Source of the DNA: an uncultured Thermoanaerobaculia bacterium
GTDB taxonomy: Bacteria > Acidobacteriota > Thermoanaerobaculia > Thermoanaerobaculales > Sulfomarinibacteraceae
NCBI GenBank assembly: GCA_964423595.1
Contig: CAYRFI010000001.1
Span: 21,598-85,597 of the forward strand
DNA: 64,000 nucleotides
Reading direction: 5' to 3'
Below are positions 391 through 58,797 of this stretch, in pieces (the first letter of the stretch is position 1; every line of letters begins with the position of its first letter). A program made the position numbers and the translations under genes. The notes below the pieces were generated by a model that was not told where the DNA came from, did not search any database, and was given only the letters and a program-made list of their open reading frames with translations.

Positions 391-485
391 AACCGCGAAG
401 ACGCGAAGAGCGCAAAGACCGTCACGAAGGAAAACTCGAGATATCACCTTTGCGCTTTCTTTGCGTCTTTGCGTCTTTGCGTTTT
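391..485 (+). repeat. Long imperfect hairpin built from about 8-nt periodic repeats (GACGCNAA / TTTGCGTC arms)
   Basis: Left arm AACCGCGAAGACGCGAAGAGCGCAAAGACC (391-420) pairs with right arm CCTTTGCGCTTTCTTTGCGTCTTTGCG (447-473). There is an 8-bp core GCGCAAAG/CTTTGCGC plus a roughly 15-bp extension whose only non-Watson-Crick positions are G-U when folded as + strand RNA. Confidence 0.7.
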
Positions 486-6560: not shown

Positions 6561-6611
6561 TTGACAGGCGCTTTTCGAGGATCTATCGTTGTTCTAGATA
6601 GAACGTTCTAG
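6561..6611 (+). promoter_or_regulatory. Sigma70-like promoter with overlapping palindromic operator upstream of tetR and the BMC operon
   Basis: TTGACA (6561-6566), 17 nt, TATCGT (6584-6589). Palindrome GTTCTAGATAGAAC (6591-6604), nested TCTATC...GATAGA (6582-6602), and a third GTTCTAG at 6605-6611. Confidence 0.5.
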
Positions 6612-6641
6612 TTATTTTGATCTTTTTCTGCTGGAGAACCC

Positions 6642-7316
6642 TTGGGGCCGCGTCAAACCACAACCCGGGAACGCCTGATCACCACCGCCGCCGAGCTCTT
6701 TCGGCGCCAGGGTTATGCCCACACCGGGGTCAATCAGATCATTCAGGAGGCAAACGCGACCAGCGGCAGCTTTTACCACTTCTTTCCGGCCAAGGAGGAT
6801 CTGCTGCTGGCGGTGGTCGATCACATCGCCGAAGTCTTCGAAACCGGGATCTTCGATCCCGCCGCGGATCGATCCGATGACCCCATCGAGGAGATCTTCA
6901 TGATCCTCGATCTCTACCGTCGGCAGCTCGACGACGGTGGCTTCACCTTCGGTTCACCGATGGCAAGCCTGTCGGCCGAGGTTTCGGAAAATCACCCTGA
7001 GGTCAGGGCCAGGCTGGCCGAGATCTTGAGCTCATGGACCGGCCGCATCGAGGAGTTGCTGCGGAATGCGGGGGAGCGCCTGCCGAGGAGCATCGATCGC
7101 AGCGCCCTCGCCCAGCTCATCGTCTGCACGATGGAGGGCGCAGTCCTCGGCACCCGTTTGCGGCGCAGCCTGGCGCCCTTCGATGCGTCCGTGGGTCAGC
7201 TCCGAACCTACCTCGATCTTCTCGACAGCCGGAAGGAGCACCACGCGACTGTCCCGGCCGCGAGAAGGGTGCCTTCGGTCTCGCGGCCACAGCCTGCGGA
7301 TTGGAGAAGCTGGTGA
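6642..7316 (+). CDS. TetR/AcrR-family transcriptional regulator
   Basis: N-terminal HTH TRERLITTAAELFRRQGYAHTGVNQIIQEANATSGSFYHFFPAKEDLL. TTG start. Stop TGA at 7314-7316 overlaps the GTG of the next gene (GTGA). Confidence 0.85.
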   Translation: MGPRQTTTRERLITTAAELFRRQGYAHTGVNQIIQEANATSGSFYHFFPAKEDLLLAVVDHIAEVFETGIFDPAADRSDDPIEEIFMILDLYRRQLDDGGFTFGSPMASLSAEVSENHPEVRARLAEILSSWTGRIEELLRNAGERLPRSIDRSALAQLIVCTMEGAVLGTRLRRSLAPFDASVGQLRTYLDLLDSRKEHHATVPAARRVPSVSRPQPADWRSW

Positions 7317-7900
7317 ACAGCATTGACAACCATGCCGGCAACCCAGCTATCACGGAGGAAGAGATCCGACAGTTGGTGAGCGTGGTGGTCGACGAGGCGA
7401 TGGCCGTCAAAAGGACAGACGCGCCGAAAAACCCCGAGACCATCGCCATCGGCGCTGACCACGCCGGATACGAGCTCAAGCAGGCGATCACCGAACACCT
7501 GCGTCAGCAGGGCCTCGCCGTTCACGATTGCGGGTGTGTCAACACCGAGGCGGTCGATTACCCTGACTTCGCGCATGCGGTCGCAAACCTGGTTGGCACC
7601 GGCGTCTGCCGGTGGGGCATCATCGTTGACGGCGCCGGTATCGGCTCGTGTATCGTCGCCAACAAGGTGCCCGGGGTGCGCGCCGCCCTCTGCTACGACC
7701 TCTCGTCGGCCCGTAACAGCCGTGAGCACAACCACGCCAACGTCCTCACCCTCGGTGCCGGATTGATCGGTATGGGCCTCGCGCGTCAGATCGTCGACGA
7801 GTGGCTGGCCACGCCGTGGGGCCCGGACCGTCACGCGCGCCGGGTGGCCAAGATCACCGACATCGAGCACCGCTACCTGCGGCCGGGAGCCGAAGCATGA
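7313..7900 (+). CDS. rpiB: RpiB/LacA/LacB-family sugar-phosphate isomerase with N-terminal extension (putative encapsulation peptide)
   Basis: Core IAIGADHAGYELKQAITEHL...GIIVDGAGIGSCIVANKVPGVRAAL...REHNHANVLTLGA. About 45 extra N-terminal residues include the amphipathic EEEIRQLVSVVVDEAMAV. The GTG 7313 start is inferred from the GTGA overlap; an internal ATG start (at MAVKRTD) would lack the extension. Confidence 0.8.
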   Translation: MNSIDNHAGNPAITEEEIRQLVSVVVDEAMAVKRTDAPKNPETIAIGADHAGYELKQAITEHLRQQGLAVHDCGCVNTEAVDYPDFAHAVANLVGTGVCRWGIIVDGAGIGSCIVANKVPGVRAALCYDLSSARNSREHNHANVLTLGAGLIGMGLARQIVDEWLATPWGPDRHARRVAKITDIEHRYLRPGAEA

Positions 7901-8727
7901 TCGATCGCAACGAGCTCATCGAGGCCGTCACCCGCCAGGTGCTGGCGACTCTCGCCGGCCAACCCGCCGACCAGGGTCTGGAAAACGCACCCCAGGTGGT
8001 GGCCAACGGCGCCGCCCGCCTCGGCTACTGCGGCGCCGCCGCCGCCGTGCCGAAGGACCTGGCGCAGTACATCGACCACACCCTGCTGCGGCCCGACGCC
8101 TCCTCTGCCGATATCGATCGTCTCTGCGACGAGGCGGCGGAGTACGGGTTTGCCGCGGTCTGCATCAACCCCTCATGGGTGGCGCGAGCCAAGAAGCGCT
8201 TGCGCGGTTCCAACATCACGGTGGCCTCGGTGGTTGGCTTCCCTCTCGGCGCCAACACCCCCGAGATCAAGGCGATGGAGGCGCGCCGAGCGCTGCGGGA
8301 CGGCGCGCGTGAGATCGACATGGTGATCAACATCGGCGCCCTCAAAGGCGGCGAGCATGACCTCGTGCGGCGTGACATCGCCGGCGTGTCGGACGCCTGC
8401 CGCGAGGTCGGGGCGCTCAATAAGGTGATCATCGAGGCCGCGTATTTGACCGACGAGGAGAAGGTGATCGCGTGCCGGCTCGCGGTCGCCGGGCGCGCCC
8501 ACTACGTCAAGACCTCGACCGGCTTCGGGCCGGGCGGGGCAACTGTATTTGACGTTGCTCTGATGCGCGAGGTCGTCGGCGCCAAGGTTGGCGTCAAAGC
8601 GGCCGGCGGCATCCACACCGCGGCCGAGGTGCGCGAGATGATCACCGCCGGGGCGACGCGCATCGGGGCGTCGGCCGGCGTCCGCATCGTCTCGGGTGAG
8701 GAAGGAGAGTCCGGTGGACAATATTGA
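7897..8727 (+). CDS. deoC: Deoxyribose-phosphate aldolase with N-terminal extension (putative encapsulation peptide)
   Basis: Core ..[38 protein letters not shown]...VKTSTGF...VKAAGGI. About 50 extra N-terminal residues start [25 protein letters not shown] overlap with the rpiB stop. Confidence 0.85.
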
Positions 8728-9340
8728 CCTTCGCTCTTACGTTTTCCTGGATTCGCTGCAGCCCCAGTACGCGGCGTTCCTCGGCACCGTCGCACAGGGC
8801 TTCCTGCCGCTGGCCGGCGACGCTTCGCTGTGGGTGGAGATCTCGCCGGGGATCGAGATCAACCGGCTCACCGACGTCGCCCTCAAGGCGACCCACGTGC
8901 GGCCCGGGATGCAGATCGTCGAACGCTTCTATGGCCTGCTCGAGGTGCACTCCGAGTCACAGGCCGACACCCGCGCAGCCGGCGCCGCCATCCTGGCGGA
9001 GATCGGGCTCGAGGAGAAGGACCGCCGCAAACCGAAAATCCTCTCGAGCCAGGTCATCCGCCACCTCGACGACCACCAGGTGCAGCTCATCAACCGCATG
9101 CGGCACGGCCACATGATCATCCCCAAGCAGACCCTGTACGTGCTCGAGGTCGAACCGGCGGCCTACGCGGCGCTCGCGGCCAATGAGGCCGAGAACGCCG
9201 CCGAGATCAACATTCTCGAGGTGCGGGCCTTCGGCTCGATGGGCCGGGTCTACCTCGGTGGAGAGGAGCGGGATATCGATGTCGGGTGGCGCGCGGCGGT
9301 CGCCGCCATCGAGGGCGTGGAAGGAAGAGAAGAAAAGTGA
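8714..9340 (+). CDS. Tandem-domain BMC shell protein (BMC-T type)
   Basis: Two BMC-like halves: ..[31 protein letters not shown].. and ..[39 protein letters not shown]... GTG 8714 is preceded by GAAGGAGAG. The alternative GTG 8696 overlaps deoC more. Confidence 0.65.
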
Positions 9341-9343
9341 TCA

Positions 9344-9378
9344 CGATTTCGGATTTCGGATTTCGGATTTCGGATTTG
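9344..9378 (+). repeat. Heptanucleotide tandem repeat (GGATTTC, about 4.7 copies) in the leader of the BMC-H gene
   Basis: CGATTTC GGATTTC GGATTTC GGATTTC GGATTTG, directly after the stop at 9338-9340. Including the SD (GAAAGGAG), the 9341-9406 spacer has six GGA motifs. Confidence 0.9.
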
Positions 9379-9406
9379 GTTCTCGGATGCGAGAAAGGAG
9401 TTTTCG

Positions 9407-9724
9407 ATGGCTGAAGCGTTGGGAATGATCGAGTGCCGGGGATTTGCGGCTGTCGTGGAGGCCGCCGACGCCATGGTCAAGGCGGCCAAGGTCGAGCTGG
9501 TGTCGTATGAGAAGACTGGCGGCGGCTACGTCACCGCTATCGTGCGCGGCGACGTCGCCGCGGTCAAGGCCGCGGTCGAGGCCGGTATCCGCGGCGCCGA
9601 GACCATCGGCGAAGTGGTGTCGACCCATGTCATTGCCCGCCCCCACACCAACATCGACCTCGTCCTGCCCCTCGGCCGCGCCGAAGAGGCGGCCGGCGAA
9701 ACCAAGGCCAAGGGCAAGCGCTGA
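9407..9724 (+). CDS. BMC-H hexameric shell protein (PduA/EutM-like)
   Basis: [60 protein letters not shown] is the canonical single BMC domain. SD GAAAGGAG lies upstream. Confidence 0.92.
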
Positions 9725-10038
9725 TGCTGCTCGGGCGAGTGGCCGGCACCCTGGTCGCGAGCCGCAAGGACGAGGGCCTCCAGGGCCAGAAGTTCCTGGT
9801 TGTGCGCGAGCTCGGGGTAGACGGCAAGGAGACCGGTGGTCACGTGGTGGCGGCGGACTCGGTCGGCGCGGGTGTCGGCGACGTGGTGCTGTGGGCCTCT
9901 GGTTCGTCGGCGCGGCAGACCGAGTACACCCGCGACCGCCCGTGTGACGCGGTCATCATGGCCATCGTCGATAGCTGGGAGGTCGGCGGCGAGGAGATCT
10001 ACCGCAAGACCCCGGCCGGCGGCGAGTGGGCGAGCTGA
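9724..10038 (+). CDS. BMC-P pentameric vertex protein (EutN/CcmL family), paralog 1
   Basis: [30 protein letters not shown]...[25 protein letters not shown] overlaps the preceding TGA. Confidence 0.88.
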
Positions 10039-10053
10039 CGATCGAAACGGGCG

Positions 10054-10086
10054 CGGTCGAGGACGAGGAGCGATGAACCTCGACCG
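10054..10086 (+). promoter_or_regulatory. Intra-operon stem-loop with a 5-codon mini-ORF, upstream of the aldehyde dehydrogenase
   Basis: Perfect 9-bp stem CGGTCGAGG / CCTCGACCG with a 15-nt loop ACGAGGAGCGATGAA. ATGAACCTCGACCGGTGA (10073-10090) encodes MNLDR. A second SD, TGGAGG, lies 8 nt before TTG 10106. Confidence 0.5.
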
Positions 10087-10105
10087 GTGACTGGAGGCGC
10101 AGCAG

Positions 10106-11548
10106 TTGCAAGCAGCATTTGACCAGCAGGAGATCGCGGCCGTCGTCGAACGCGTGCGGCTGAAGCTTCGCGGCCATACGGAAGTGCCGCCCACCGCCAT
10201 GGTCGACCGACAGGATGTCGCCGGCGATGGCATCTATCCGGATGTCGACTCCGCGGTGGCGGCGGCACGGACGGCGTTCGAAGCGTACCGATCGATGGGA
10301 CTGAAAAAAAGGCACCGCATCATCGATGCGGTGCGTAGTGCCATGCGCGACAGGGCTGGAGAGCTGGCGAACATGGCGCGTGAGGAGACCGGCATCGGCC
10401 GCGCCGAGGACAAGCTGCTCAAAAACCTCCTTGTCACCAACAAAACGCCCGGTCCTGAGGACCTCGAGCCCCGGGTGTGGTCGGGCGATCAGGGTCTGAC
10501 CGTTACCGAGTACGCGCCTTTCGGCGTCATCGGCGCCATCACCCCGACCACCAACCCGACCGCGACGATCATCAACAACTCCATCGCCATCGTCTCGGCA
10601 GGCAACGCCGTGGTTTTCAACGCCCATCCCAACGCCAAAAGGGTCTCGGTCCAGAACGTCCGCTGGCTGAACCAGGCCATCGTCTCGGCCGGTGGCCCGC
10701 CCGACCTCGTCACCGCGACCCCGGAGCCGACAATCGAGAGCGCCCAGCGGCTCATGAACCACCCACAGGTCCGGATTTTGATGATCACCGGCGGACCGGG
10801 CGTGGTGAAGGAGGCGCAAAAAACCCGCAAGAGGTCGATCTGCGCCGGTCCCGGCAATCCACCGGTGGTGGTCGACGTCAACGCTGACCTCGAGCTCGCA
10901 GGGCGAGAGATCGTGCGCGGCGCGTCATTCGATAACAACGTGATCTGCACCGACGAGAAGCTCGTCATTGTCGTGGACACCGCGGCCGACGAGCTGCTGC
11001 GGCAGATGCGGACCAACCACGCCTACCTGCTCAAGGCGTACGAGCTCAAAAAGCTCGAGCGGGTGATCTTCTCGGAGATCGGCGAGCCGGGCAAACCGGG
11101 CCGGATCAACTCACGCTGGATCGGCCAGAACGCCGGGACAATTCTCTCCGAGATCGGGATTCAGGCCGGGGACGATCTCCGCCTGGTGCTCGCCGACGTG
11201 CCGCCTGAGCACTCCCTGGTGTGGACCGAGCAGATGATGCCGGTGATGCCGGTGGTCCGGGTCCGCACCGTCGACGAGGCCATCGACCTGGCAATCCAGG
11301 CCGAGCACGGCTGCGGCCATACCGCCTCGATCTACTCCCGCGACGTCAACGCCATCACCAGCATGGCGCGTGACATCGATGTCTCGATCTTCGTCGCCAA
11401 CGCCGCCAATCTCGCCGGTCTCGGCGACGGTGGAGAGGGCTACACCTCTTTCTCCATCGCCAGCCCGACCGGCGAAGGGCTGACCCGACCACGCAGCTTC
11501 TCCCGTGATCGCCGGATGACCGTCGCCGGTGGTCTGAGGATCGTCTGA
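10106..11548 (+). CDS. CoA-acylating aldehyde dehydrogenase (PduP/EutE-like) with N-terminal encapsulation-peptide-like helix
   Basis: Catalytic-Cys region KRSICAGPGNPPVVVD; ALDH fold throughout (FGVIGAITPTTNP, NAHPNAK). The N-terminus (M)QAAFDQQEIAAVVERVRLKLRG is amphipathic. TTG start. Confidence 0.85.
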   Translation: MQAAFDQQEIAAVVERVRLKLRGHTEVPPTAMVDRQDVAGDGIYPDVDSAVAAARTAFEAYRSMGLKKRHRIIDAVRSAMRDRAGELANMAREETGIGRAEDKLLKNLLVTNKTPGPEDLEPRVWSGDQGLTVTEYAPFGVIGAITPTTNPTATIINNSIAIVSAGNAVVFNAHPNAKRVSVQNVRWLNQAIVSAGGPPDLVTATPEPTIESAQRLMNHPQVRILMITGGPGVVKEAQKTRKRSICAGPGNPPVVVDVNADLELAGREIVRGASFDNNVICTDEKLVIVVDTAADELLRQMRTNHAYLLKAYELKKLERVIFSEIGEPGKPGRINSRWIGQNAGTILSEIGIQAGDDLRLVLADVPPEHSLVWTEQMMPVMPVVRVRTVDEAIDLAIQAEHGCGHTASIYSRDVNAITSMARDIDVSIFVANAANLAGLGDGGEGYTSFSIASPTGEGLTRPRSFSRDRRMTVAGGLRIV

Positions 11549-12138
11549 TGCAGCCGGCTATTGCATTGCTCGAGTTCAACTCTATCGCCATCGGGATGCG
11601 GGCCGGCGACGCCATGGTCAAACGCGCCCCTGTCGAGGTCACCTATGCCGGCACCGTTCATCCGGGTAAATACCTGGTGCTGGTCGGCGGTGACGTCGCG
11701 TCGGTCGAGGAGAGTTACGTCGCCGGCCTCTCCGCCGGCGGCGACGCCGTGGTCGATCGGATCTTCCTGCCGTCCGCCCACCCGGATATCGCACGTTACC
11801 TGCGCGGAATGCGCGGTCGGGTCACCGGCGAAGCGATCGGGATCGTCGAGACCACAACCGTCGCCGCAACCATCGGCGCCGCCGACCGCGGCCTCAAGGG
11901 CGCCGACGTGGATCTGGTCGAACTCAAGCTCGCCGACCGGCTCGGCGGCAAGGCCTATTGCGTCTTTTCGGGCACCGTCGCCGACGTCGAGGCGGCGGTC
12001 GAGGTCGGCGTCGATCACCTTGACGACCCATCCATGTTGGTCGCCCAGGTCGTGATCCCCGACTTCCACGACGAGATGCTGGCCAACCTCGAGGCGGCGA
12101 CCGAGTTCTCCTCGCGCATCAGCGGCGGCAGGGGTTAG
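11548..12138 (+). CDS. Tandem-domain BMC shell protein (BMC-T, Haliangium T1-like)
   Basis: Domain 1 AIALLEFNSIAIGMRAGDAMVKRAPVEV..GKYLVLVGGDVASVEES; domain 2 IGIVETTTVAATIGAADRGLKGADVDLVELKLADRLGGKAYCVFSGTVADVEAAVE. ATG overlaps the preceding TGA. Confidence 0.85.
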   Translation: MQPAIALLEFNSIAIGMRAGDAMVKRAPVEVTYAGTVHPGKYLVLVGGDVASVEESYVAGLSAGGDAVVDRIFLPSAHPDIARYLRGMRGRVTGEAIGIVETTTVAATIGAADRGLKGADVDLVELKLADRLGGKAYCVFSGTVADVEAAVEVGVDHLDDPSMLVAQVVIPDFHDEMLANLEAATEFSSRISGGRG

Positions 12139-12297
12139 CGTGCTTCGCGCGACTGCGAAGCTCCGACCACGTCGTGTGCAGGCGAGACGCCTGCACCACA
12201 AGAGGGAAGGATTGTGGTGCGGCCGTCTCGACCGCACAAATATTGGCACCATCTTGCGGCCCTCGCTACGCGAGGTCACGAGGAGCGTAGTGTAGAT
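12139..12297 (+). other. 159-nt structured spacer inside the BMC operon (five consecutive stem-loops)
   Basis: Stems GCTTCGC/GCGAAGC (12142-12161), GTGCAGGCG/CGCCTGCAC (12176-12196), CCACAA/TTGTGG (12196-12217), GTGCGG/CCGCAC (12217-12237) and CCTCGC/GCGAGG (12261-12275). The 3' part resembles the inner end of the MITE (GGCACC..GCCCTCGC.ACG.GAG). Confidence 0.6.
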
Positions 12298-12573
12298 ATG
12301 GAACTCGGGAGGGTCACAGGGACAGTGGTCGCGACGACGATCTACGACGGTCTCGAAGGCGCCCGACTCTTGATCGTGCAGCCGCTCGACCGCAAGCTTC
12401 GACCGCGCGGACGGCCGGTTGTTGCCGCCGACGGGGTCGCGATGGCCGCGCCTGACGACCTGGTCACCTTTGTTTCGAGCCGCGAGGCCTCGCTGGCTCT
12501 GCCGCCGCCACCCGGTCCGGTCGACCACGCCATCGTCGGCATCGTTGATGCGGTCGAGGAGTGGTCACAGTGA
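12298..12573 (+). CDS. BMC-P pentameric vertex protein, paralog 2
   Basis: MELGRVTGTVVATTIYDGLEGARLLIVQPLD...AADGVAMAAPDDLVTFVSSREA. SD AGGAGCG lies upstream. The longer ORF from 12214 runs through the hairpin spacer. Confidence 0.8.
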   Translation: MELGRVTGTVVATTIYDGLEGARLLIVQPLDRKLRPRGRPVVAADGVAMAAPDDLVTFVSSREASLALPPPPGPVDHAIVGIVDAVEEWSQ

Positions 12574-12863
12574 AGATCGGACGCGTCGCCGGCACCGTGG
12601 TCTCGACCATCTGCTCGCCGGTCTTCGAAAACCGGAAACTGCTCTTTGTCGACCTGCTCGACCTCGATGGCAACGGGACCGGCGGGGATGTCATCGCGGT
12701 GGACGCCGTCGGCGCCGGCGCCGGCGAGACCGTGCTCGTGCTCGACGAGGGCAACGGCGCGCGTCAGGTGCTCGAAGCCCCCGACGCGCCGGTGCGGGCG
12801 GTGGTTGTTGGCGTCATCGACGAGATCGAGACCCTCAGAACCTCACCCGTGCGAAGACGCTGA
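12570..12863 (+). CDS. BMC-P pentameric vertex protein, paralog 3
   Basis: (V)KIGRVAGTVVSTICSPVFENRKLLFVDLLD...AVDAVGAGAGETVLVLDEGNGARQ. GTG 12570 overlaps the preceding TGA (GTGA). Confidence 0.8.
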   Translation: MKIGRVAGTVVSTICSPVFENRKLLFVDLLDLDGNGTGGDVIAVDAVGAGAGETVLVLDEGNGARQVLEAPDAPVRAVVVGVIDEIETLRTSPVRRR

Positions 12864-13248
12864 CGTCGTTGATGTCCATCTTGACGGCGCCGTCGACCAG
12901 GTTACCTTCGGCAGTATAGATGCCCGCCCAATCGACGTCGATGGTGACCAGGTTGTCGCCGACCTTGACGCTCAGCAAGCCGAGACCGGTGAGGAAGCGC
13001 CAGTGCTCGGAGAACAGGCGCCGATACTCGAAGTAGAGGTAGGGTAGCGGACCGCTCCCCTTGGCCTCGGCGGTGCCTTCTCCTTCAGTGAAATCGCTTT
13101 GCCACGCCAGCGTCGCCTTGAGGTCCATCCAGCGGACACCGACCCGGTGTCGCTTGGCGATCTGCCACTGGAGGGCAAGCGTGGGTTCGTTGCCCACCAC
13201 GGTGCAGACCGCAGCTGTCGCTACGTAAGCGATGGAAAGTGAGGTCAT
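12835..13248 (-). CDS. Hypothetical small protein with an outer-membrane beta-signal-like C-terminus
   Basis: Alternating beta-strand-like sequence ending ..DINDVSVFARVRF. The N-terminus is only weakly signal-like. Overlaps the convergent BMC-P gene by 29 nt. Confidence 0.35.
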   Translation of the reverse strand: MTSLSIAYVATAAVCTVVGNEPTLALQWQIAKRHRVGVRWMDLKATLAWQSDFTEGEGTAEAKGSGPLPYLYFEYRRLFSEHWRFLTGLGLLSVKVGDNLVTIDVDWAGIYTAEGNLVDGAVKMDINDVSVFARVRF

Positions 13249-13331
13249 GGCGTCGGCGCTCCAGGAATCACCGGGTTACTGTACCGCGCCCCGGATGCCG
13301 GTCGTGTGACGGCTCAGCCCGGAGGGCAAAA

Positions 13332-13367
13332 CCGGAAGGGCGAAGCCGGAAGGGCGAAGCCGGATGC
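13332..13367. repeat. 14-nt tandem repeat (CCGGAAGGGCGAAG x2 plus a partial copy)
   Basis: 13332-13345 and 13346-13359 are identical, followed by CCGGATGC. Lies in the divergent intergenic region upstream of gabD. Confidence 0.85.
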
Positions 13368-13406: not shown

Positions 13407-14864
13407 ATGCAACTCACCGACAGTACGTTGTTGAAAACCCGGGCCTTGGTTGGCGGCACGTGGATCGACGCCGACGACGGCGCGACCTTTGCCGTGACCA
13501 ACCCGGCGACTGGCGAGGTCGTTGCGGAGGTGGCGAAATGCGGCGGCGGCGAAACCCGCCGCGCCATCGAGGCGGCAGAGCGGGCCCAGATCGAGTGGCG
13601 GCAGAAGACGGCCGCAGAGCGCTCAAATCTCCTCAGGCGGTGGTTCGAGCTGATGATGGAGCACCAGGAGGACCTGGCGCGGGTCATGACCGCGGAGCAG
13701 GGCAAACCACTCTTCGAATCGCGAGGCGAGATCGCCTACGGCGCGAGCTACATTGAGTGGTTTGCCGAGGAGGCCAAACGGATCTATGGCGACGTCATAC
13801 CTCCGCCTGCCACCGACCGCCGAATCGTCGTTATCAAGCAGCCGGTCGGCGTCGTGGCGTGCATCACGCCGTGGAACTTCCCCAACGCCATGCTCGCGCG
13901 CAAGGTCGGCGCCGCGCTGGCCGCCGGCTGCACGGCGGTGTGCAAGCCCGCGACCGCAACGCCACTCTCTGCCCTGGCGATGGCCGAGCTCGCCGATCGC
14001 GCCGGCATCCCCCCGGGCGTGATCAACGTCGTCGCCGGACGCACCGGCGCCATCGGCGATGAGCTCACCTCCAACCCCACCGTCCGCAAGCTGACCTTTA
14101 CCGGCTCGACCGAGGTCGGCAAAAAGCTCGTTGAGCAATGCGCTGGGACCATGAAGCGGACCTCGATGGAGCTTGGCGGCAACGCACCCTTCATCGTCTT
14201 TGACGACGCCGATTTCGAAACGGCGGTCAAGGCCACCCTGGCCAGCAAGTACCGTAACGCCGGCCAGACCTGCGTCTGCGCCAACCGCGTCCTGGTCCAG
14301 GAAAGCGTCATAGAGGAGTACTCCGAGATGCTGGCCGAGGCGGTGGCCGAGTTCAAGCTCGGCAACGGCGCCGACGAGGGCGTGACCATGGGCCCGCTGA
14401 TCGACGATGCCGCGGCAGACAATGTCGTCGCCATGATCGAGGACGCAGCTGCGAAAGGAGCCAAGGTCATGCTTGGCGGCGGCCGCTCGAAGCTCGGTGG
14501 GAGCTTCGTCGAGCCGACCATTCTCTCAGGGGTCACCAGCGACATGCGGGTCTTCCGCGAGGAGATCTTCGGGCCGGTGTCGCCGCTGGTTTCGTTCAGC
14601 ACCGAGGAGGATGCGATCGCGATCGCCAACGACACCCAGTTCGTGCTCGCGGCCAACTTCTGCACGCGCGATATCGGCCGTATCTGGCGCGTCGCCGAAG
14701 GCCTCGAGTACGGCATCATCGGCATCAACGAGGGCGTCATTTCCAACGCCATGGCCCCCTTCGGCGGCATCAAGGAGTCCGGCAACGGCCGTGAGGGCTC
14801 CAAGTACGGCCTCGATGATTACCTCGAGATCAAGTACCTGTGCATCGGTGGTATCGACGGGTAG
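13407..14864 (+). CDS. gabD: NAD(P)+-dependent succinate-semialdehyde dehydrogenase (GabD-like, non-acylating ALDH)
   Basis: MQLTDSTLLKTRALVGGTWIDADDGATFAVTNPATGEVVAEV..., ITPWNFP, FTGSTEVGK, ELGGNAP, catalytic-Cys region GQTCVCANR. Start chosen at the ATG preceded by a G-rich stretch. Confidence 0.88.
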   Translation: MQLTDSTLLKTRALVGGTWIDADDGATFAVTNPATGEVVAEVAKCGGGETRRAIEAAERAQIEWRQKTAAERSNLLRRWFELMMEHQEDLARVMTAEQGKPLFESRGEIAYGASYIEWFAEEAKRIYGDVIPPPATDRRIVVIKQPVGVVACITPWNFPNAMLARKVGAALAAGCTAVCKPATATPLSALAMAELADRAGIPPGVINVVAGRTGAIGDELTSNPTVRKLTFTGSTEVGKKLVEQCAGTMKRTSMELGGNAPFIVFDDADFETAVKATLASKYRNAGQTCVCANRVLVQESVIEEYSEMLAEAVAEFKLGNGADEGVTMGPLIDDAAADNVVAMIEDAAAKGAKVMLGGGRSKLGGSFVEPTILSGVTSDMRVFREEIFGPVSPLVSFSTEEDAIAIANDTQFVLAANFCTRDIGRIWRVAEGLEYGIIGINEGVISNAMAPFGGIKESGNGREGSKYGLDDYLEIKYLCIGGIDG

Positions 14865-15048: not shown

Positions 15049-18000
15049 ATGCGAAAGGTGAGACGTCTCGCGGCCGTCGTTCTGACGACGGTTGCAGCGG
15101 TCGCGATCGGCCTGTGGCTGGCGCGCGACCAGCCTCGCCGTATCGTGCAAGCGGCGCTGGCCGAACGTCTCGGTGCCGAGGTCTTGGTCGGCAACCTGCA
15201 CATCGAGGGTCTGAACGAGATCCGGCTCGGTCAGGTCGTGATTCGGATGCGCGCCGCGCCCGGCCTGCGGGAGATCCGCATCGCCGAAATCGTGGCCCGA
15301 GGTGCCGTCGGCGACATGTCCAGGGGTCGTTTCCAGTCCCTGCGATTGGTCGGCGTCGAGGTCATAGTGGACCCGGCTGCCGGCGCCGTGTGGCCGACCG
15401 CTGTCGGAAAGTCGGCGAGTCCCGCAGTGGCGCGGCTCGTACTCGTCGGCGGCCGCCTCACGCTGCTCTCGCCCGACGGTGACAGCGACATCGATTTCAC
15501 GGCTGACCTGAACGGCCTCGGAATTGTGCCGACCGGGACCGTGACGTTCACCGGCGACCGGCTGCAGCTCGATCCCCTGCTCCGGCTGGCTGGCCTCGAC
15601 CTTCCCGACAGCCTGCGGCATACTCACGTCGACGGCCTTGTCGGCGAGCTTCGTCTGGCCGCGGACCAACCGCGGTTCGCACTCAGTGCTTGTGTCGACC
15701 GAATTTCGTTGGCGGGTCGGCCAATGGACGCCGTGGCGCGGCTCGACGGTAACGTGGTCGAGGAGGCGCCGGGCGTCGTCCGCGTCGTGCTGGTGCCGTC
15801 GCTGCCGTCGGTCGGCGAGGCGCGAATCGAGGCGACGCTCGCGACATCACCGTGGAGGGTGAGGTGGTTGCGGGCCCTGGCCAACGAGATCGACGCCGCT
15901 GTCTGGTCGCTCCCACCGCTCGATCTGCCCCCGGGCTGGAGCGTGGTCGGCGGCACGATCGACCTGGAGGTTGGCGGCGATCCAGCAAGCGGGCTGGCCG
16001 TCGATGTCACGGCCCACGATCTCGACATCGTCGGTTCGGTGCCCCTTCGCGGCAACCTCGCGGGGAAGGGTGAGGTTCGGATCAACGACGCCGGGACCCC
16101 GACCGGCCGGATCGAACTCACCGGCCGGATCACGAGGCTGCCCACCGAGACCGCTCCGAACACTGTACTCGACGCCGTGCTCCCGACGACGTTAGACGCG
16201 AGGGTCGAACTGCCCTCCGAAGGTCGTCCCGTCTCCGGTTCCCTGAGGCTGGCCACCGCCGCGGCGGGCGACCTCGAGGTGACGGGCACAGCAGCGCTCG
16301 GGGCATCGGCGCCGCTCGACGCCCGCTGGAGCTGGAGCGGAGGCGATCTCGAGCATCTGGTGGACTGGTTCGCCACGGATGCAGCAGCGTTGATACCCGG
16401 GGGCCTCGTTGTGGCGGGCGAGGTGGCGGCCCGCGGACGGCTCGGCGGCAGCCTCACGGCGCCGACCGTGTCCGGAGAGGCGTGGGTCCACAATCTCGCC
16501 GTTCGCTCGCGCGGCGCAGCAGCCGCCGGTACGCCCGGCTGGCGGCTCTCCGGCGAACACCCGGTCGCCCGCTTTGCGTGGACGCGCGGGAAACCGACGA
16601 TCGAACTCGAGGTGCCCGACACCCGGCTGATCGTCGCGATCGATCCCCTGGATCCGGTGCCGGTCGCCCTGCAAGCGTCGGCGACTAGGGACACGGTGAG
16701 TGGCGGGGTAGGGCTCCGACAGGTGGTCGTCGACGCCGGCAGCCTGGGCACGGCCCGTCTCGAGGGGGACTGGCAACCTGCCGCGGCCGCGTCCGTCCGG
16801 CTGGCGGTACGGGTCGACGACCTGAGCGGCTGGCTGTCGCTTGCCGCGCCGGTTCTCGGCGACTCGCTGAGCGACGCCAACGCCTCCGGGCGCGTGACGC
16901 TCGAGCTGGAGGCGACGAGAGACGACACCGGGTGGAATCTCGACGGTCCCATCGAGGTGGCGGGAGCCGGTCTCAGCGCGGCTGACGGGAGCCGCGTGAT
17001 GGAAGGGCTCGAAGCGACGGCACAGCTGAAGGGCGCCGCCGGTTCGAGCGGCGGCCTGAGAGCGAACGTCGCCGCCACTCTGGGCGGATTCCAGCTCCTG
17101 TGGGGCACCCACTTTGCCGATTTCACCGGCCGCCAGGCGGTGGTGAAAATCGACGCGGATCGGGGTCCGGGCGGCGTCGCGGCGGTGACGGTGCAGCTCG
17201 AGCTGCGTCCCCAGGCCGCCCTGACAGGAACGGTCCGGATCGCCGCCGGAGCACCGGCCACCTGGGAGGAATCGCTGACGGTCACGGACATCGGTGGTTT
17301 CTGGGAGCGCTACGTCACGGTGCCATTCCAGGGCACCCTCGGCGCTGCGGGAAGCCTTCGACTCGAGGGCGGCGAGTTCCGGACGCGACTGAACGGCACA
17401 ATCGGCGGGGTGGTGACCGTGACCGGAGATGCGGAGCTGGACCGGCTGTCGATCGCTTCCGTGGATGACGGCTCGAACGTGGAGAATCTCCAGATCCAAC
17501 TTCCGGTGGACCTCGGTTGGGCCGAGGGCGGTGCGACGGAAGAAGGGCAACCGCACCGGGGCTCGTTCAAATTCGACAACGCGTCCGTGGGCGGAGTGGA
17601 GCTGTCGGCTACCGCGACCGAGCTCAGTGTTCTCGGGGACACCGTGACTGCGATCGGCGGCCTCCACCTCCCGGTCTTCGGCGGCGAGGTGGTGCTCGAA
17701 AATGTCGAGTTCGCCGAACTTGCACGATCGAGTCGCCACCTGGCGGCTTCGGTCGGGCTGGTCCGTATCAGCCTTACTGAGGTGGCACGGGCGCTCGGTC
17801 TGCCGCCGCTCGCGGGCGATGTCACGGGCCGCTTCCCTCGCGTGCTTTACAGCAACGGCATTCTGACAGTGGACGGGACGGGCGAGCTGTCCCTGTTCGG
17901 CGGCACGGTGACGATGCGCGGGATCACCGGCTCCGACCTGCTCACCCGCTATCCTCGCCTGAAGTTCTCGGCCGACTGGCGGGACATCGACCTCGCGCAG

Positions 18001-18450
18001 CTGACCCGCACCTTCGACTTCGGAGCGATGAGCGGCATCGTCGAGGGCCAGCTCGTCGACTGCGAGATCTTCCGCGACGTCCCGATCGGATTTCGTGGCG
18101 TTCTCCGGTCGGTACCCCGCAAGGGAGTGCCGCGGCGGATCTCGCTGAAGGCGGTCAACAACATCGCGATCGTCGGCACGGGCAGCGGCCTCGGGTTCCT
18201 CGATCGCGGCCTTCGCCGGTTCATCAGCAGTTACGCGTACCATTCCATCGGTATCGAAATGGCCCTGTCGAACGACCACTTCCTGCTTCGCGGTCTCGAG
18301 CGCCGGGGCGATCGGGAGCTGTTCGTCAAGGGCAGGTTTCCCCTGCGGCTCGACGTCGTCAACGTCCAGCCGGGCATGACGGTGTCGTTCCGGACCATGA
18401 TCCAGCGCCTCCGCACCCTTGACGTGACGACCGTGACGACGCAACCTTAG
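15049..18450 (+). CDS. YdbH-like AsmA-family giant envelope protein (putative intermembrane lipid-transfer protein)
   Basis: N-terminal anchor MRKVRRLAAVVLTTVAAVAIGLWLA. Long Gly/Val/Leu/Ala-rich beta-rich body. The C-terminal region ..GDVTGRFPRV..GELSLFGGTVTM..DWRDIDLAQLT..GIVEGQL.. is YdbH-like as I recall it. Genomic context with a YnbE/YdbL homolog immediately downstream. Confidence 0.6.
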   Translation: MRKVRRLAAVVLTTVAAVAIGLWLARDQPRRIVQAALAERLGAEVLVGNLHIEGLNEIRLGQVVIRMRAAPGLREIRIAEIVARGAVGDMSRGRFQSLRLVGVEVIVDPAAGAVWPTAVGKSASPAVARLVLVGGRLTLLSPDGDSDIDFTADLNGLGIVPTGTVTFTGDRLQLDPLLRLAGLDLPDSLRHTHVDGLVGELRLAADQPRFALSACVDRISLAGRPMDAVARLDGNVVEEAPGVVRVVLVPSLPSVGEARIEATLATSPWRVRWLRALANEIDAAVWSLPPLDLPPGWSVVGGTIDLEVGGDPASGLAVDVTAHDLDIVGSVPLRGNLAGKGEVRINDAGTPTGRIELTGRITRLPTETAPNTVLDAVLPTTLDARVELPSEGRPVSGSLRLATAAAGDLEVTGTAALGASAPLDARWSWSGGDLEHLVDWFATDAAALIPGGLVVAGEVAARGRLGGSLTAPTVSGEAWVHNLAVRSRGAAAAGTPGWRLSGEHPVARFAWTRGKPTIELEVPDTRLIVAIDPLDPVPVALQASATRDTVSGGVGLRQVVVDAGSLGTARLEGDWQPAAAASVRLAVRVDDLSGWLSLAAPVLGDSLSDANASGRVTLELEATRDDTGWNLDGPIEVAGAGLSAADGSRVMEGLEATAQLKGAAGSSGGLRANVAATLGGFQLLWGTHFADFTGRQAVVKIDADRGPGGVAAVTVQLELRPQAALTGTVRIAAGAPATWEESLTVTDIGGFWERYVTVPFQGTLGAAGSLRLEGGEFRTRLNGTIGGVVTVTGDAELDRLSIASVDDGSNVENLQIQLPVDLGWAEGGATEEGQPHRGSFKFDNASVGGVELSATATELSVLGDTVTAIGGLHLPVFGGEVVLENVEFAELARSSRHLAASVGLVRISLTEVARALGLPPLAGDVTGRFPRVLYSNGILTVDGTGELSLFGGTVTMRGITGSDLLTRYPRLKFSADWRDIDLAQLTRTFDFGAMSGIVEGQLVDCEIFRDVPIGFRGVLRSVPRKGVPRRISLKAVNNIAIVGTGSGLGFLDRGLRRFISSYAYHSIGIEMALSNDHFLLRGLERRGDRELFVKGRFPLRLDVVNVQPGMTVSFRTMIQRLRTLDVTTVTTQP

Positions 18451-18478
18451 GGAGTTTCCCGAAACGGAGGACACGAAG

Positions 18479-19111
18479 ATGAAACGCTCGATCGCAATCG
18501 GACTCGGGTGCGCCGCCGCCGTGGTGGCGTGCATCACCATCAACGTCTACTTCCCGGAAGCGGCGGTCAAGGAGCTGGCGCAGCAGATCGAGGACGAGGT
18601 GCAGAGAAAAGCGGTGAGCGAGCCCTCGCCGACCCCGGCTCCCGAGCCGACGCCGACGCCGGTAGCGGAGTCCAACATGGCCACGCACGAGAGCCTGCTG
18701 TCGTGCGTCCTCTCCCTCGGCGCGACCACTGCGTATGCGGCGCAGGACGAGGTCGCGGCGCCCGAGATCACCAACCCGGCGATCCGCAAGATCATCGACT
18801 CACGCGCCACGCGGCTCGGGGCGATCAACGCTCTCAAGGCGAGTGGCGTGATCGGCGAGGGCAACCAGGCCCTGCTCGTGGTCCGCAACCTCGATGCGAT
18901 TCAGGGGCTGAAGGAACGGGCCGACGCGCAGAAGTTGATCAAGGACGAGAACGCCGATCGCGAGCAGCTGTTCAAGGAGATCGCCGCAGCCAAGAACGTC
19001 GATCTCGCCCAGTTGCCGCAGATCCGCACCACCTATGCCGAGACCCTGCGGGAGAATGCGCACCCCGGCGACTGGATCCAGCTACCCGACGGAAGCTGGA
19101 CACAGAAGTAA
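18479..19111 (+). CDS. Fusion ORF: YnbE-like lipoprotein plus YdbL (DUF1318)-like periplasmic protein
   Basis: N-terminus MKRSIAIGLGCAAAVVAC|ITINVYFPEAAVKELAQQIEDEV (lipobox VVAC, YnbE-like ITIN motif), then a Pro/Thr linker and an internal signal-like segment MATHESLLSCVLSLGATTAYA. The C-terminus ..GVIGEGNQALLVVR...KLIKDENADREQLFKEIA...PGDWIQLPDGSWTQK is the DUF1318 signature. Confidence 0.7.
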   Translation: MKRSIAIGLGCAAAVVACITINVYFPEAAVKELAQQIEDEVQRKAVSEPSPTPAPEPTPTPVAESNMATHESLLSCVLSLGATTAYAAQDEVAAPEITNPAIRKIIDSRATRLGAINALKASGVIGEGNQALLVVRNLDAIQGLKERADAQKLIKDENADREQLFKEIAAAKNVDLAQLPQIRTTYAETLRENAHPGDWIQLPDGSWTQK

Positions 19112-21936: not shown

Positions 21937-22040
21937 ACGCACAGACGCAGAGACGCGGAGACGCAGAGAAGATCTTTTCTGTCTGAGGCTTTCCTCACCA
22001 AAAAGATTCTCTGCGCCTCTGCACCTCTGCGCCTCTGCGT
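21937..22040 (-). repeat. Long imperfect hairpin of about 8-nt periodic repeats between cyt b and the Rieske gene
   Basis: Arms ACGCACAGACGCAGAGACGCGGAGACGCAGAGAAGATC (21937-21974) and GATTCTCTGCGCCTCTGCACCTCTGCGCCTCTGCGT (22005-22040). Three CTCTGCG/CGCAGAG blocks pair. Most non-Watson-Crick positions become G-U on the - strand, which is the transcribed strand. Confidence 0.7.
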
Positions 22041-27016: not shown

Positions 27017-28447
27017 ATGATGAAAAGAGGCATGTCGTACATCGTACTGATCTTCGCCATGGTGATGCTGACCCAAGCCTGCGCATCGTCACGATCGAAG
27101 TTGAGCTTCGAGCCAGGCGCAATCGACACCGATACATATGTTCGTAAGGTCGATCAGTTCGTCGTGATTGCGGACGGCTCGCTTTCGATGACCGATCGTT
27201 GGCAAGGTCAACGAAAGCTCGGGGTTTCCGAGGACTTCTTGATCAGCCTCAACCAGACGGTACCCGATCTCGGCTACGACGGAGGGCTGCGAACCTTCGG
27301 GCGTGGGCTCTGCAAGAGCGAGGGGAAAACGGTTTCGATCATCGAAGTCGGTGAGTACCTCACCTCGTCGTTCGGTGATGGCGTTGCGAGGTTCAACTGC
27401 GCCAACGGCACCAGTCCCCTCAACCTCGCCCTCGACGCCGCCGGGGCTGATCTTTATAAAAGGGACTCGAGGACGGCAATCGTCATCGTCAGCGACGGTC
27501 TCGACATGGGCAAAAAGGAAGTGGCCGCCGCCGAGGGCCTCGCATCCGCGTTTGGCGAAAACCTCGAGATCTACGCGGTCCAGATCGGCGACAGCAACAA
27601 AGGACGTGAGCTTCTCGAAAAGGTGGTTGCCGCAGGTGGTTCCGGCTATCTCAAGCCCGCGAGCAAGCTGACGACTTCCCGGGCGATGGCTCAATTCGTC
27701 GCCGACGTCTTCCTGTGGCCCGATTCCGACGGCGACGGTGTTGCTGACCACATCGATCAATGTCCGGACACCCCAAAGGGCGTTGAGGTTGACGCGGTGG
27801 GTTGCCCGATCGATTCCGACGGTGATGGTGTCCCCGATTACCTCGACAAGTGCCCCGGCACCCCCAAGGGCGTCGAAGTTGACGCCAAGGGCTGCCCGAT
27901 CGACTCCGACGCCGACGGTGTGCCCGACTACCTCGACAAGTGCCCCGGCACCCCCGGCGGCACCAAGGTCGACACCAAGGGCTGCCCGGTCGATTCCGAC
28001 GGCGACGGCGTTCCCGACTCTCTCGACAAATGTCCCGGCACGCCCAGGGGCGTCCCGGTCGATGACACCGGTTGCCCGATCGCGGGTATCGAGGTGGCTG
28101 GCGACGAGTGGTCCGTGAGAGGCCAAGTGCTCTTCGACCTCAACCGTGCCACCATCAAGCCCGAGGCGGCAGAGGTCCTGCTCCGGGTCGCCAACTTCCT
28201 CAAGAAGAACCAGCAGTACACGGTCGAGATCCAGGGCAACACGGACAGCACCGGAGCTCTGGCCTGGAACATGAAGCTCTCCGAGATGCGGGCCGACGCG
28301 GTGAAGCAATTCCTCGTGACCGACGGCGTCACGGCCGATCGTTTGACCACCAAGGGCTTTGGACCCAACGAACCCCTCGCGCCCAACAACACCGCCGAGG
28401 GCCGGGCCAGGAACCGCCGGGTTGACTTCAAACCCACGATGCGCTGA
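27017..28447 (+). CDS. Outer-membrane lipoprotein: vWA-like domain, four thrombospondin type-3 repeats and an OmpA C-terminal domain
   Basis: AGGAGG SD. MMKRGMSYIVLIFAMVMLTQAC lipobox. MIDAS-like DGSLSM. Repeats DSDGDGV(A/P)D..D(Q/K)CP(D/G)TP(K/R)GV.VD..GCP x4. OmpA motif ..NTDSTGALAWNMKLSEMRADAV...GRARNRRVDF. Confidence 0.85.
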   Translation: MMKRGMSYIVLIFAMVMLTQACASSRSKLSFEPGAIDTDTYVRKVDQFVVIADGSLSMTDRWQGQRKLGVSEDFLISLNQTVPDLGYDGGLRTFGRGLCKSEGKTVSIIEVGEYLTSSFGDGVARFNCANGTSPLNLALDAAGADLYKRDSRTAIVIVSDGLDMGKKEVAAAEGLASAFGENLEIYAVQIGDSNKGRELLEKVVAAGGSGYLKPASKLTTSRAMAQFVADVFLWPDSDGDGVADHIDQCPDTPKGVEVDAVGCPIDSDGDGVPDYLDKCPGTPKGVEVDAKGCPIDSDADGVPDYLDKCPGTPGGTKVDTKGCPVDSDGDGVPDSLDKCPGTPRGVPVDDTGCPIAGIEVAGDEWSVRGQVLFDLNRATIKPEAAEVLLRVANFLKKNQQYTVEIQGNTDSTGALAWNMKLSEMRADAVKQFLVTDGVTADRLTTKGFGPNEPLAPNNTAEGRARNRRVDFKPTMR

Positions 28448-57370: not shown

Positions 57371-57441
57371 GGCTTTACGGCTTTACGGCTATCAGGCGCC
57401 GTCTTCGCCCGATGCTGGATGCTCGATGCTGGACTCTCGAT
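57371..57441. repeat. Two short tandem repeats (GGCTTTAC x2.5 and GATGCTG-like heptamer x4)
   Basis: GGCTTTACGGCTTTACGGCT (57371-57390); GATGCTG GATGCTC GATGCTG GACTCTC GAT (57411-57441), followed by CCGCCCACCCATCCA, which is also present at 49487-49501. Confidence 0.8.
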
Positions 57442-58630: not shown

Positions 58631-58797
58631 CTCTGATGCCACCGGCCGTCGACGTGAGGGGTCATGAGTCAAGAGTCAAGACGGGCCCGATTATTTCGAG
58701 CCTTGAGGCTGCATATCCGACACACCCTTCACTTTTAACTCTTGATACGTAACCTGTTGCGGCCACGCGCCAGCGAGAACCAGACGCGCTGAACGAG

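Follow-up and report, generated by a model that had tools for sequence, protein, structure and literature searches.

The locus and its relatives

The subject of this work is a bacterial microcompartment (BMC) operon at positions 6561-12863 of a 64-kb stretch of DNA, here called the window, from an uncultured Thermoanaerobaculia bacterium (Acidobacteriota). Ten co-oriented, closely packed genes, recognized by Pfam together with structure and profile matches, lie there on the + strand, one for a TetR regulator, three for enzymes and six for proteins of the shell. The enzymes comprise an RpiB-like protein, an aldolase for deoxyribose-5-phosphate (DERA, the product of deoC) and an acylating aldehyde dehydrogenase (AldDh), and the whole is very probably, judging from gene content and order, the operon of a sugar-phosphate-utilising (SPU) metabolosome of the SPU3 type, which would convert deoxyribose-5-phosphate into acetyl-CoA. 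The genes are, in their order along the strand:

6642..7316, + strand: tetR, TetR-family regulator of 224 aa with a TTG start, first gene of the operon (Pfam TetR_N, 1.5e-13, and TetR_C_13_2, 8.7e-15)
7313..7900, + strand: rpiB-like gene, RpiB-like protein of 195 aa (PF02502/LacAB_rpiB, 8e-52)
7897..8727, + strand: deoC, DERA/DeoC of 276 aa with a 52-residue N-terminal extension (DeoC Pfam; TIGR00126 equivalog, 277 bits, cut-off 117)
8714..9340, + strand: BMC-T(dp), CcmP-like tandem permuted shell protein of 208 aa (CcmP 4HT5, 6e-87; NCBIfam CcmP, 347 bits, cut-off 340)
9407..9724, + strand: BMC-H, hexamer of 105 aa with KAAK and (A)RPH interface motifs (PF00936, 4e-30; the sole single-domain PF00936 gene)
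9724..10038, + strand: BMC-P, pentamer 1, of 104 aa (PF03319, EutN_CcmL, 1.4e-28)
10106..11548, + strand: AldDh, predicted CoA-acylating enzyme of 480 aa, PduP/EutE type (Aldedh Pfam; NCBIfam PRK15398, 610 bits, cut-off 403)
11548..12138, + strand: BMC-T(s), PduT-like tandem shell protein of 196 aa (two PF00936 domains; PduT 3PAC, 5.6e-39)
12298..12573, + strand: BMC-P, pentamer 2, of 91 aa, a length also called on the relative L001 (PF03319, 6e-21)
12561..12863, + strand: BMC-P, pentamer 3, closing the cassette, of 97-100 aa depending on the start used, 12561 or 12570 (PF03319, 1.5e-22)

An earlier note on this DNA had described a single + strand operon of ten genes, six of them for the shell, and all ten do lie at the positions that it gave. 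The gene boundaries were identical in independent calls on eight metagenome contigs carrying the identical BMC-T(s) protein. The tetR stop and the rpiB start overlap in the sequence GTGA (7313-7316), and the rpiB stop and the deoC start in ATGA (7897-7900); the former overlap, of 4 bp, was also called in the relatives L001 and L009 by independent metagenome gene calls, in agreement with the previous suggestion that the regulator is co-transcribed with the genes behind it. As regards the limits of the unit, the cassette is intact in two relatives (DERA identity 90% and 85%) whose flanks are different, and therefore the unit was taken to run from tetR to the last BMC-P gene (12561-12863), where synteny with the relatives stops. 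Among the three BMC-P genes, recognized by PF03319, those at 12298-12573 and 12561-12863 are adjacent and that at 9724-10038 stands apart.

When the proteins of the window were mapped onto 82 related loci, two architectures were resolved. The window belongs to architecture A, (RpiB-)DERA-Tdp-H-P-AldDh-Ts-P-P, represented by 33 loci (SPU3-like in what follows) from Thermoanaerobaculia, Acidimicrobiia, Chloroflexota, Woeseiaceae, Lentisphaerae, Calditrichia, Marinimicrobia and Myxococcota, several of which have long DERA open reading frames (ORFs) consistent with the RpiB-DERA fusions mentioned for SPU3 in published descriptions of the type. Architecture B, RpiB-DERA-P-AldDh-H-Tdp-P-P, was found in Anaerolineae with a distant AldDh (130-160 bits), and corresponds to SPU6.

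Shell proteins

The two tandem shell genes had been counted together in the earlier note as BMC_T genes, and the failure of BMC profile models to call the product at 8714 or that at 11548 had been named there as a point that would speak against the reading. Both genes are indeed tandem shell genes, although not of one kind, that at 8714 being a BMC-T(dp) and that at 11548 a BMC-T(s) with two BMC domains. The product at 8714-9340 gave no match to PF00936 at E<=0.01 in the Pfam search, yet it is clearly a BMC protein by its CcmP and CsoS1D matches: it matches the BMC-T of Haliangium ochraceum (HO) and CsoS1D at 1e-71 to 2e-55, and is carried as PF27545 (CsoS1D_N) in the precomputed JGI annotation. 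It is closer to CcmP (294 bits) than to CsoS1D (191 bits), being thus CcmP-like by score. The gating Glu-Arg pair is kept (IVER, whose VER is aligned with the ER of the CcmP motif FIER). Two annotation pitfalls are exposed by this gene, since PF00936 misses BMC-T(dp) and NCBIfam would label it as the beta-carboxysome component CcmP in a window with no carboxysome genes.

A carboxysome-related locus is in fact what such an automatic annotation would suggest, the NCBIfam CcmP model being passed (narrowly, at the score listed above) and the best solved relative being CcmP itself. Nevertheless, no RuBisCO, carbonic anhydrase, CcmM/N or CsoS2 was found by Pfam in the window, where DERA, the RpiB homologue and the acylating AldDh are present instead, and CcmP-like T(dp) proteins are documented, in the parts of the BMC literature dealing with these types, in SPU2, SPU3, HO and MIC3 loci. 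The probability of a carboxysome-related system is accordingly regarded as negligible.

The BMC-T(s) protein carries a His in place of the pore Cys38 of PduT ('skticpgkf' of PduT aligned with 'agtvhpgky') and matches the HO BMC-T1 (5DIH) at 1.6e-25.

Enzymes of the cassette

All three enzymes start with an amphipathic motif of the encapsulation peptide (EP) kind, one of which is EEEIRQLVSVVVDEA, followed by a poorly conserved linker, and these N-terminal motifs are conserved across related loci. The EP-like helix of AldDh, QQEIAAVVERVRLKL, is followed by a variable linker and is conserved in 33 related loci; that of the RpiB homologue is ITEEEIRQLVSVVVDEAM.

DERA (7897-8727) matches DERAs of the Protein Data Bank (PDB) down to 2.6e-75 and keeps the catalytic Asp/Lys/Lys motifs, including GVKAAGG. 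Its extension precedes the region that matches the solved DERAs and is conserved across SPU3-like loci. In many SPU3-like DERAs a Cys-rich insert of the approximate form C-x2-C-x3-4-C-x3-C stands between the N-terminal helix and the barrel (L013, L015, L016, L019, L020, L022, L024, L041, L053, L055, L061, L072 and L078); it occurs neither in the lineage of the window nor in L009-L012. The insert may be a metal or Fe-S site, and the SPU sections of the 2021 BMC catalogue (Sutter et al. 2021, Nat Commun 12:3809) and of the biochemical study discussed below (PMC11585597) do not mention it.

AldDh aligns end to end with the Rhodopseudomonas palustris BMC AldDh (5JFL, 2.9e-123), and its catalytic Cys is aligned in the same comparison (FDNNVICTDEK against FDNNLPCVAEK). 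From this alignment and the profile score the enzyme is predicted to be CoA-acylating.

In the RpiB homologue, IVDGAG replaces the VICGTG of C. thermocellum RpiB (3PH3), the catalytic Cys being changed to Asp and the Thr to Ala, and the same alignment shows Asp-His, His-Asn and Arg retained in the active site. The protein passes the NCBIfam rpiB equivalog model (146.6 bits against a cut-off of 138.65). Asp stands at the position of the catalytic Cys in 66 of the 68 SPU-linked RpiB homologues (L009-L090), with the exact motif DGAG in 65, and the replacement was seen in SPU3-like and SPU6-like loci alike. Such a fixed residue argues for selection rather than decay.

The nearest biochemical information comes from the DERA and RPI of an SPU6 system, which were purified and assayed by Dwyer, Sutter & Kerfeld (2024, Commun Biol 7:1562; PMC11585597), so that the previous remark on a lack of experimental characterisation for SPU systems is not supported. 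According to the SPU6 results given there, DERA is active and forms a complex of about 1:1 with RPI, complex formation leaves the DERA kinetics unchanged, and RPI has little or no ribose-5-phosphate isomerase activity; the protein lacks the catalytic Cys, perhaps the reason for its inactivity, and a role in packaging was suggested. Our literature search returned no SPU study later than this one.

These data bear on a different explanation, in which the RpiB homologue would be an active enzyme using the Asp as base on a sugar phosphate other than ribose-5-phosphate, with a feedstock broader than, or different from, deoxyribose-5-phosphate. The near-constant Asp and DGAG in both architectures, the retained active-site residues and the equivalog score speak for it, and so does the RpiB of Mycobacterium tuberculosis, which works with Glu instead of Cys according to a citation in the same paper. 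The near-inactivity of the purified SPU6 RPI on ribose-5-phosphate and the unaltered kinetics of the complexed DERA speak against it, as does the case of LacA, also taken up there, which has Asp at the same position and depends on LacB for a catalytic Cys; moreover, there is no transketolase or other enzyme at the locus that would connect pentose phosphate to DERA. An active isomerase of this sort is, on balance, rather unlikely. It overlaps in part with the mechanism preferred here, where the homologue would mainly be a DERA-binding partner, and in view of the near-universal Asp an altered role of this site, in catalysis or in the binding of a ligand, is retained as a serious alternative.

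Enzymes of cofactor recycling

The earlier note had recognized neither PduL nor an alcohol dehydrogenase (ADH) in the 64 kb, and this was borne out by two kinds of search. A Pfam scan of the 50 ORFs covering the window yielded no PF06130, PF00465, Fe- or Zn-dependent ADH, PduS-type protein, triose-phosphate isomerase or class II aldolase. In addition, a PduL seed (a Salmonella sequence, validated against R. palustris PduL 5CUO at 1.7e-50), 5CUO itself and E. coli FucO were compared with the window translated in six frames (segments of 40 aa or longer), where the best E value was 0.25. The PduL and Fe-ADH seeds also gave no match within +/-10 kb of any of 90 related loci, 33 of them SPU3-like.

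In the flanks of the SPU3-like loci no enzyme family recurs, and this includes nucleoside phosphorylase, phosphopentomutase, kinase and transporter families; the sole suggestive family is a SorC/DeoR-type regulator, with 3 of the 129 flank ORFs. The gene at 13407-14864 is, as had been noted, a GabD-like aldehyde dehydrogenase (SSADH/GabD family of NCBIfam, 685 bits against a cut-off of 646). It was considered as a part of the system and rejected, since it adjoins the cassette in L009, is absent in L010-L012 and has no EP-like extension.

The missing functions could reside elsewhere, the locus then being a canonical metabolosome in which a PduL-type phosphotransacylase (PTAC) and/or an ADH or PduS, directed by an EP from a satellite locus, would recycle CoA and NAD+ in the shell. 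Recycling of cofactors within the shell is generally taken as the rule in PDU and EUT metabolosomes, only 64 kb are in view, and some SPU subtypes do carry PTAC, ADH or PduS according to the subtype descriptions of PMC11585597. Nevertheless, neither the window nor the +/-10 kb around the 90 related loci hold such a gene, and in the catalogue entries for SPU3 satellite loci are uncommon and the BMC-T(s) is without a PduS partner. Furthermore, in the survey portion of PMC11585597 PTAC is a feature of almost all SPU1, SPU4 and SPU7 loci and an untypical one for the remaining subtypes, SPU3 among them, and loci without PTAC typically carry a BMC-T(dp), as is the case here, which was proposed as the pore for acetyl-CoA exit. 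Satellite recycling is therefore considered improbable.

Assignment to the SPU3 type

The entry for SPU3 in Supplementary Data 2 of the catalogue (Sutter et al. 2021; n=31 loci, with Acidobacteria among the phyla) lists as enzymes only AldDh, pfam01791 and pfam02502, with pfam02502 first and N-terminal EPs on AldDh and DERA, and describes a shell in which a single standard BMC-H and a BMC-P triplet are joined by a CcmP-like BMC-T(dp) and by a BMC-T(s) that has neither a PduS partner nor a pore Cys. The locus of the window was assigned to this type because its enzyme set, the rpiB-deoC order, the EPs, the shell recipe and the phylum match every testable item of the catalogue. In fact, the features of the SPU class as a whole (a DeoC with N-terminal extension, an adjacent RpiB-type protein, an AldDh with an EP) were found together with those of SPU3 in particular (the three-enzyme-only set, the CcmP-like T(dp), the T(s) lacking PduS and pore Cys, the single standard BMC-H), and the window has neither the PTAC (PduL/Pta) and ADH that form the PDU/EUT core nor the RuBisCO and carbonic anhydrase of carboxysomes.

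The SPU-class enzyme set of DeoC, RpiB and acylating AldDh proposed in the earlier note was thus confirmed, these being the sole enzymes of the cassette, and could be typed as SPU3 by composition and order. The same note had regarded the locus as an unusual and unexplained minimal variant, a view which does not stand, as a set of three enzymes with no PTAC or ADH is the catalogued norm for SPU3 and, to a large extent, for SPU2, whose three-enzyme set is likewise listed in the catalogue without PTAC, ADH or PduS.

Other types were compared and set aside. SPU2 fits worse than SPU3: it has an additional BMC-P of the green clade, the pore Cys is mostly retained in its T(s), and its host phyla are different. 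SPU6, from Chloroflexi, resembles the present system in the DERA extension, the Asp-for-Cys RpiB with EP, the acylating AldDh, the lack of PTAC, the T(dp) and the BMC-P triplet; it was rejected because gene order, AldDh clade and EP position are different and because a T(s) is present here, given that SPU6 has the architecture B order and, in its published descriptions, a C-terminal EP on AldDh, a 'blue'-clade T(dp) and no BMC-T(s). In fact, AldDh of the window scores about 130-160 bits against SPU6-like loci and 460-870 bits against SPU3-like loci. The Acidobacteria-specific ACI type, which is marked by a class II aldolase, a hydroxyacid dehydrogenase and an AldDh with C-terminal EP on a satellite locus, was also rejected.

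As for better known systems, the HO shell has the same recipe of one BMC-H, three BMC-P, a BMC-T(s) and a BMC-T(dp), and the T(dp) of the window matches the HO BMC-T at 1e-71 to 3e-68, whereas the main HO locus is without DERA or RpiB and has two T(dp) paralogues. The PDU and EUT metabolosomes of Salmonella share with the scheme proposed here a volatile aldehyde made in the shell and trapped as acyl-CoA by an AldDh of PduP/EutE type, as well as the N-terminal EPs; they differ in that CoA is recycled internally by PduL or Pta and NAD+ by PduQ or EutG, two functions for which the window holds no gene, and in that they have no T(dp). The cytosolic deoCABD of E. coli and dra-nupC-pdp of B. subtilis, the latter with the DeoR repressor, rely on the same DERA chemistry, but have no shell, a DERA without extension, and linked genes for nucleoside phosphorylase and phosphopentomutase, which are absent from the window.

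Promoter, operator and regulator

Two elements precede tetR:

6561..6589, + strand: sigma-70-like promoter, TTGACA (6561-6566), 17-nt spacer and TATCGT (6584-6589), with 10/12 consensus positions
6591..6611, + strand: putative TetR operator GTTCTAGATAGAACGTTCTAG, directly 3' of the -10 box, with half-sites GTTCTA / TAGAAC / GTTCTA

The promoter with a palindromic operator announced in the earlier note was therefore recovered, the sequence containing at 6599-6610, inside the putative operator, the perfect palindrome TAGAACGTTCTA with arms of 6 nt. An alignment of five diverged lineages shows the -35 hexamer TTGACA to be invariant, and the operator core CGTTCTAG is invariant in the window and L009-L012, against a mean column identity of about 55% in the surrounding non-coding DNA. 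This difference supports a functional promoter-operator pair at 6561-6611, where regulation by TetR is suggested by position and conservation.

The regulator itself (6642-7316) belongs to no NCBIfam equivalog, the top match being AcuR (86 bits against a cut-off of 247), and among the related loci compared it is restricted to the closest relatives, L001-3 and L009-12. The TetR gene, translationally coupled to rpiB, and the conserved palindromic operator are thus features local to this Thermoanaerobaculia sub-lineage that set it apart within the SPU3 catalogue. In contrast to many other SPU3-like loci, the window has a DERA extension without the Cys-rich insert. Its RpiB and DERA are separate rather than fused. 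In Chloroflexia SPU3-like loci the position of TetR is occupied by the SorC/DeoR-type regulator, with the sugar-binding domain PF04198, which lies directly upstream of rpiB on the same strand in L017 (6668-9325) and L019 (8315-9373). A member of the SorC/DeoR family in B. subtilis senses deoxyribose-5-phosphate and is released by this ligand; by analogy, the regulator of the Chloroflexia loci is consistent with deoxyribose-5-phosphate being the substrate of the compartment.

Proposed mechanism

The compartment probably breaks down deoxyribose-5-phosphate from DNA, and the scheme put forward for it follows the SPU model outlined in PMC11585597. TetR would repress its own operon at the palindromic operator beside the -10 box until released by a ligand. 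Deoxyribose-5-phosphate would then enter the shell, where DERA would split it into glyceraldehyde-3-phosphate, leaving for glycolysis, and acetaldehyde, which would be held inside and converted by AldDh, with CoA and NAD+, into acetyl-CoA and NADH. In the absence of a PTAC, acetyl-CoA would leave through the BMC-T(dp) pore, as already proposed in print, and we infer that NAD(H) and CoA might be exchanged by the same T(dp) route. The RpiB homologue would act mainly as a DERA-binding partner for the packing of the core, and not as a ribose-5-phosphate isomerase.

A further and more tentative idea, which we would rate as possible rather than as the expected outcome, is that SPU3 compartments are 'cofactor-open', only the aldehyde being retained, without an NAD+/CoA pool of their own, so that acetyl-CoA/CoA and NADH/NAD+ would be exchanged with the cytosol through the gated CcmP-like T(dp), and that the Asp-for-Cys RpiB is not a dead scaffold but a functional partner of DERA, either as a sugar-phosphate-binding subunit or as an isomerase of altered specificity. 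Exit through T(dp) being a hypothesis already printed, the novelty would lie in showing such exit, or a real function for the Asp variant.

Several points weigh against the SPU3 scheme as it stands. The near-universal Asp and DGAG, together with the kept phosphate-binding and His/Asn residues, fit poorly with a purely structural role of the RpiB homologue. A satellite PTAC, ADH or PduS may, with a low probability, lie beyond the 64-kb view. Moreover, the assignment to SPU3 was made by composition and gene order, and shell formation, encapsulation, substrate and cofactor traffic in SPU3 are all matters of inference. Cofactor traffic, the function of the whole compartment and the role of RpiB are questions of the entire SPU class and not peculiar to the present locus; those which the earlier note had raised were already in print with working hypotheses.

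Distribution and significance

DERA homologues of 85-96% identity are abundant in metagenomes, the named ones coming from metagenome-assembled genomes (MAGs) of Thermoanaerobaculales/Acidobacteria. More than 100 near-identical DERA clusters were found there, Thermoanaerobaculia being common in sediment metagenomes, and the nearest genomes in a species-level collection are Thermoanaerobaculia MAGs.

The locus in itself adds little that is new, being one more SPU3 locus, from Thermoanaerobaculia. It confirms that the three-enzyme design, with no PTAC and with a BMC-T(dp), forms a stable cassette whose gene order is maintained in many phyla, and SPU3 is therefore well suited by nature to testing whether a metabolosome has to recycle its cofactors internally. 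In addition, a compact cassette of ten genes with a candidate repressor-operator pair is useful for heterologous expression.

Non-coding elements and neighbouring genes

Two further elements lie within spacers of the operon:

9345..9388, + strand: 7-nt tandem repeat GATTTCG in about 6 copies, in the spacer between T(dp) and BMC-H, just 5' of the ribosome-binding site AAAGGAG (TRF score 67)
12139..12297, + strand: 159-nt spacer with a long predicted hairpin, between BMC-T(s) and the pair of pentamer genes (minimum free energy -77.2 kcal/mol, z = -4.5)

The heptad array lies in a stretch of 45% GC, in a genome of about 65% GC. The close relatives L009-L012 have four heptad copies in the same spacer with units of their own (AATCAGG, RTTCGGA, ATTTCGA or AATTCGG), and more distant SPU3-like loci, L021, L049 and L072 among them, have other heptad arrays there, which in L049 and L072 are followed by an inverted copy. 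The array could set a high expression of the major shell protein, BMC-H. Tandem arrays of 7-14-nt units also occupy other intergenic spacers of the window (394-482, 13319-13364, 21937-22039, 57371-57441 and 58661-58681), two of these arrays consisting of mutually inverted pairs, CGCGAAGA with TCTTTGCG and ACGCAGAG with CTCTGCGC, and the array of the operon may belong to a genome-wide class of intergenic repeats.

As to the hairpin spacer, none of 200 shuffled sequences folded as well. L009 and L011 have conserved the hairpin, a single compensatory pair (A-U to G-C) being seen there, and it is absent in L010, where the genes abut. Neither the hairpin at 12139-12297 nor the operon as a whole gave an Rfam match at E<=1.

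Downstream of the cassette, an ORF of 137 aa on the - strand (12835-13248) converges on the last BMC-P gene with an overlap of 29 bp. It has no family match and is also called on the metagenome contigs, and its last residues, ...FARVRF, are of the kind with which outer-membrane beta-barrel proteins typically end. Further on lies an ORF of 1133 aa (15049-18450) that was matched by neither Pfam nor NCBIfam; behind it comes a DUF1318 protein (18437-19111), and the same pair lies downstream of the cassette on L001 and L004. DUF1318 is what we take to be the YdbL family; YdbL of E. coli follows the AsmA-like YdbH, and by analogy the 1133-aa ORF may encode a divergent AsmA-like envelope protein. Finally, at 27721-28082, an OmpA-family gene contains four tandem copies of 90 nt that encode thrombospondin type 3 repeats.

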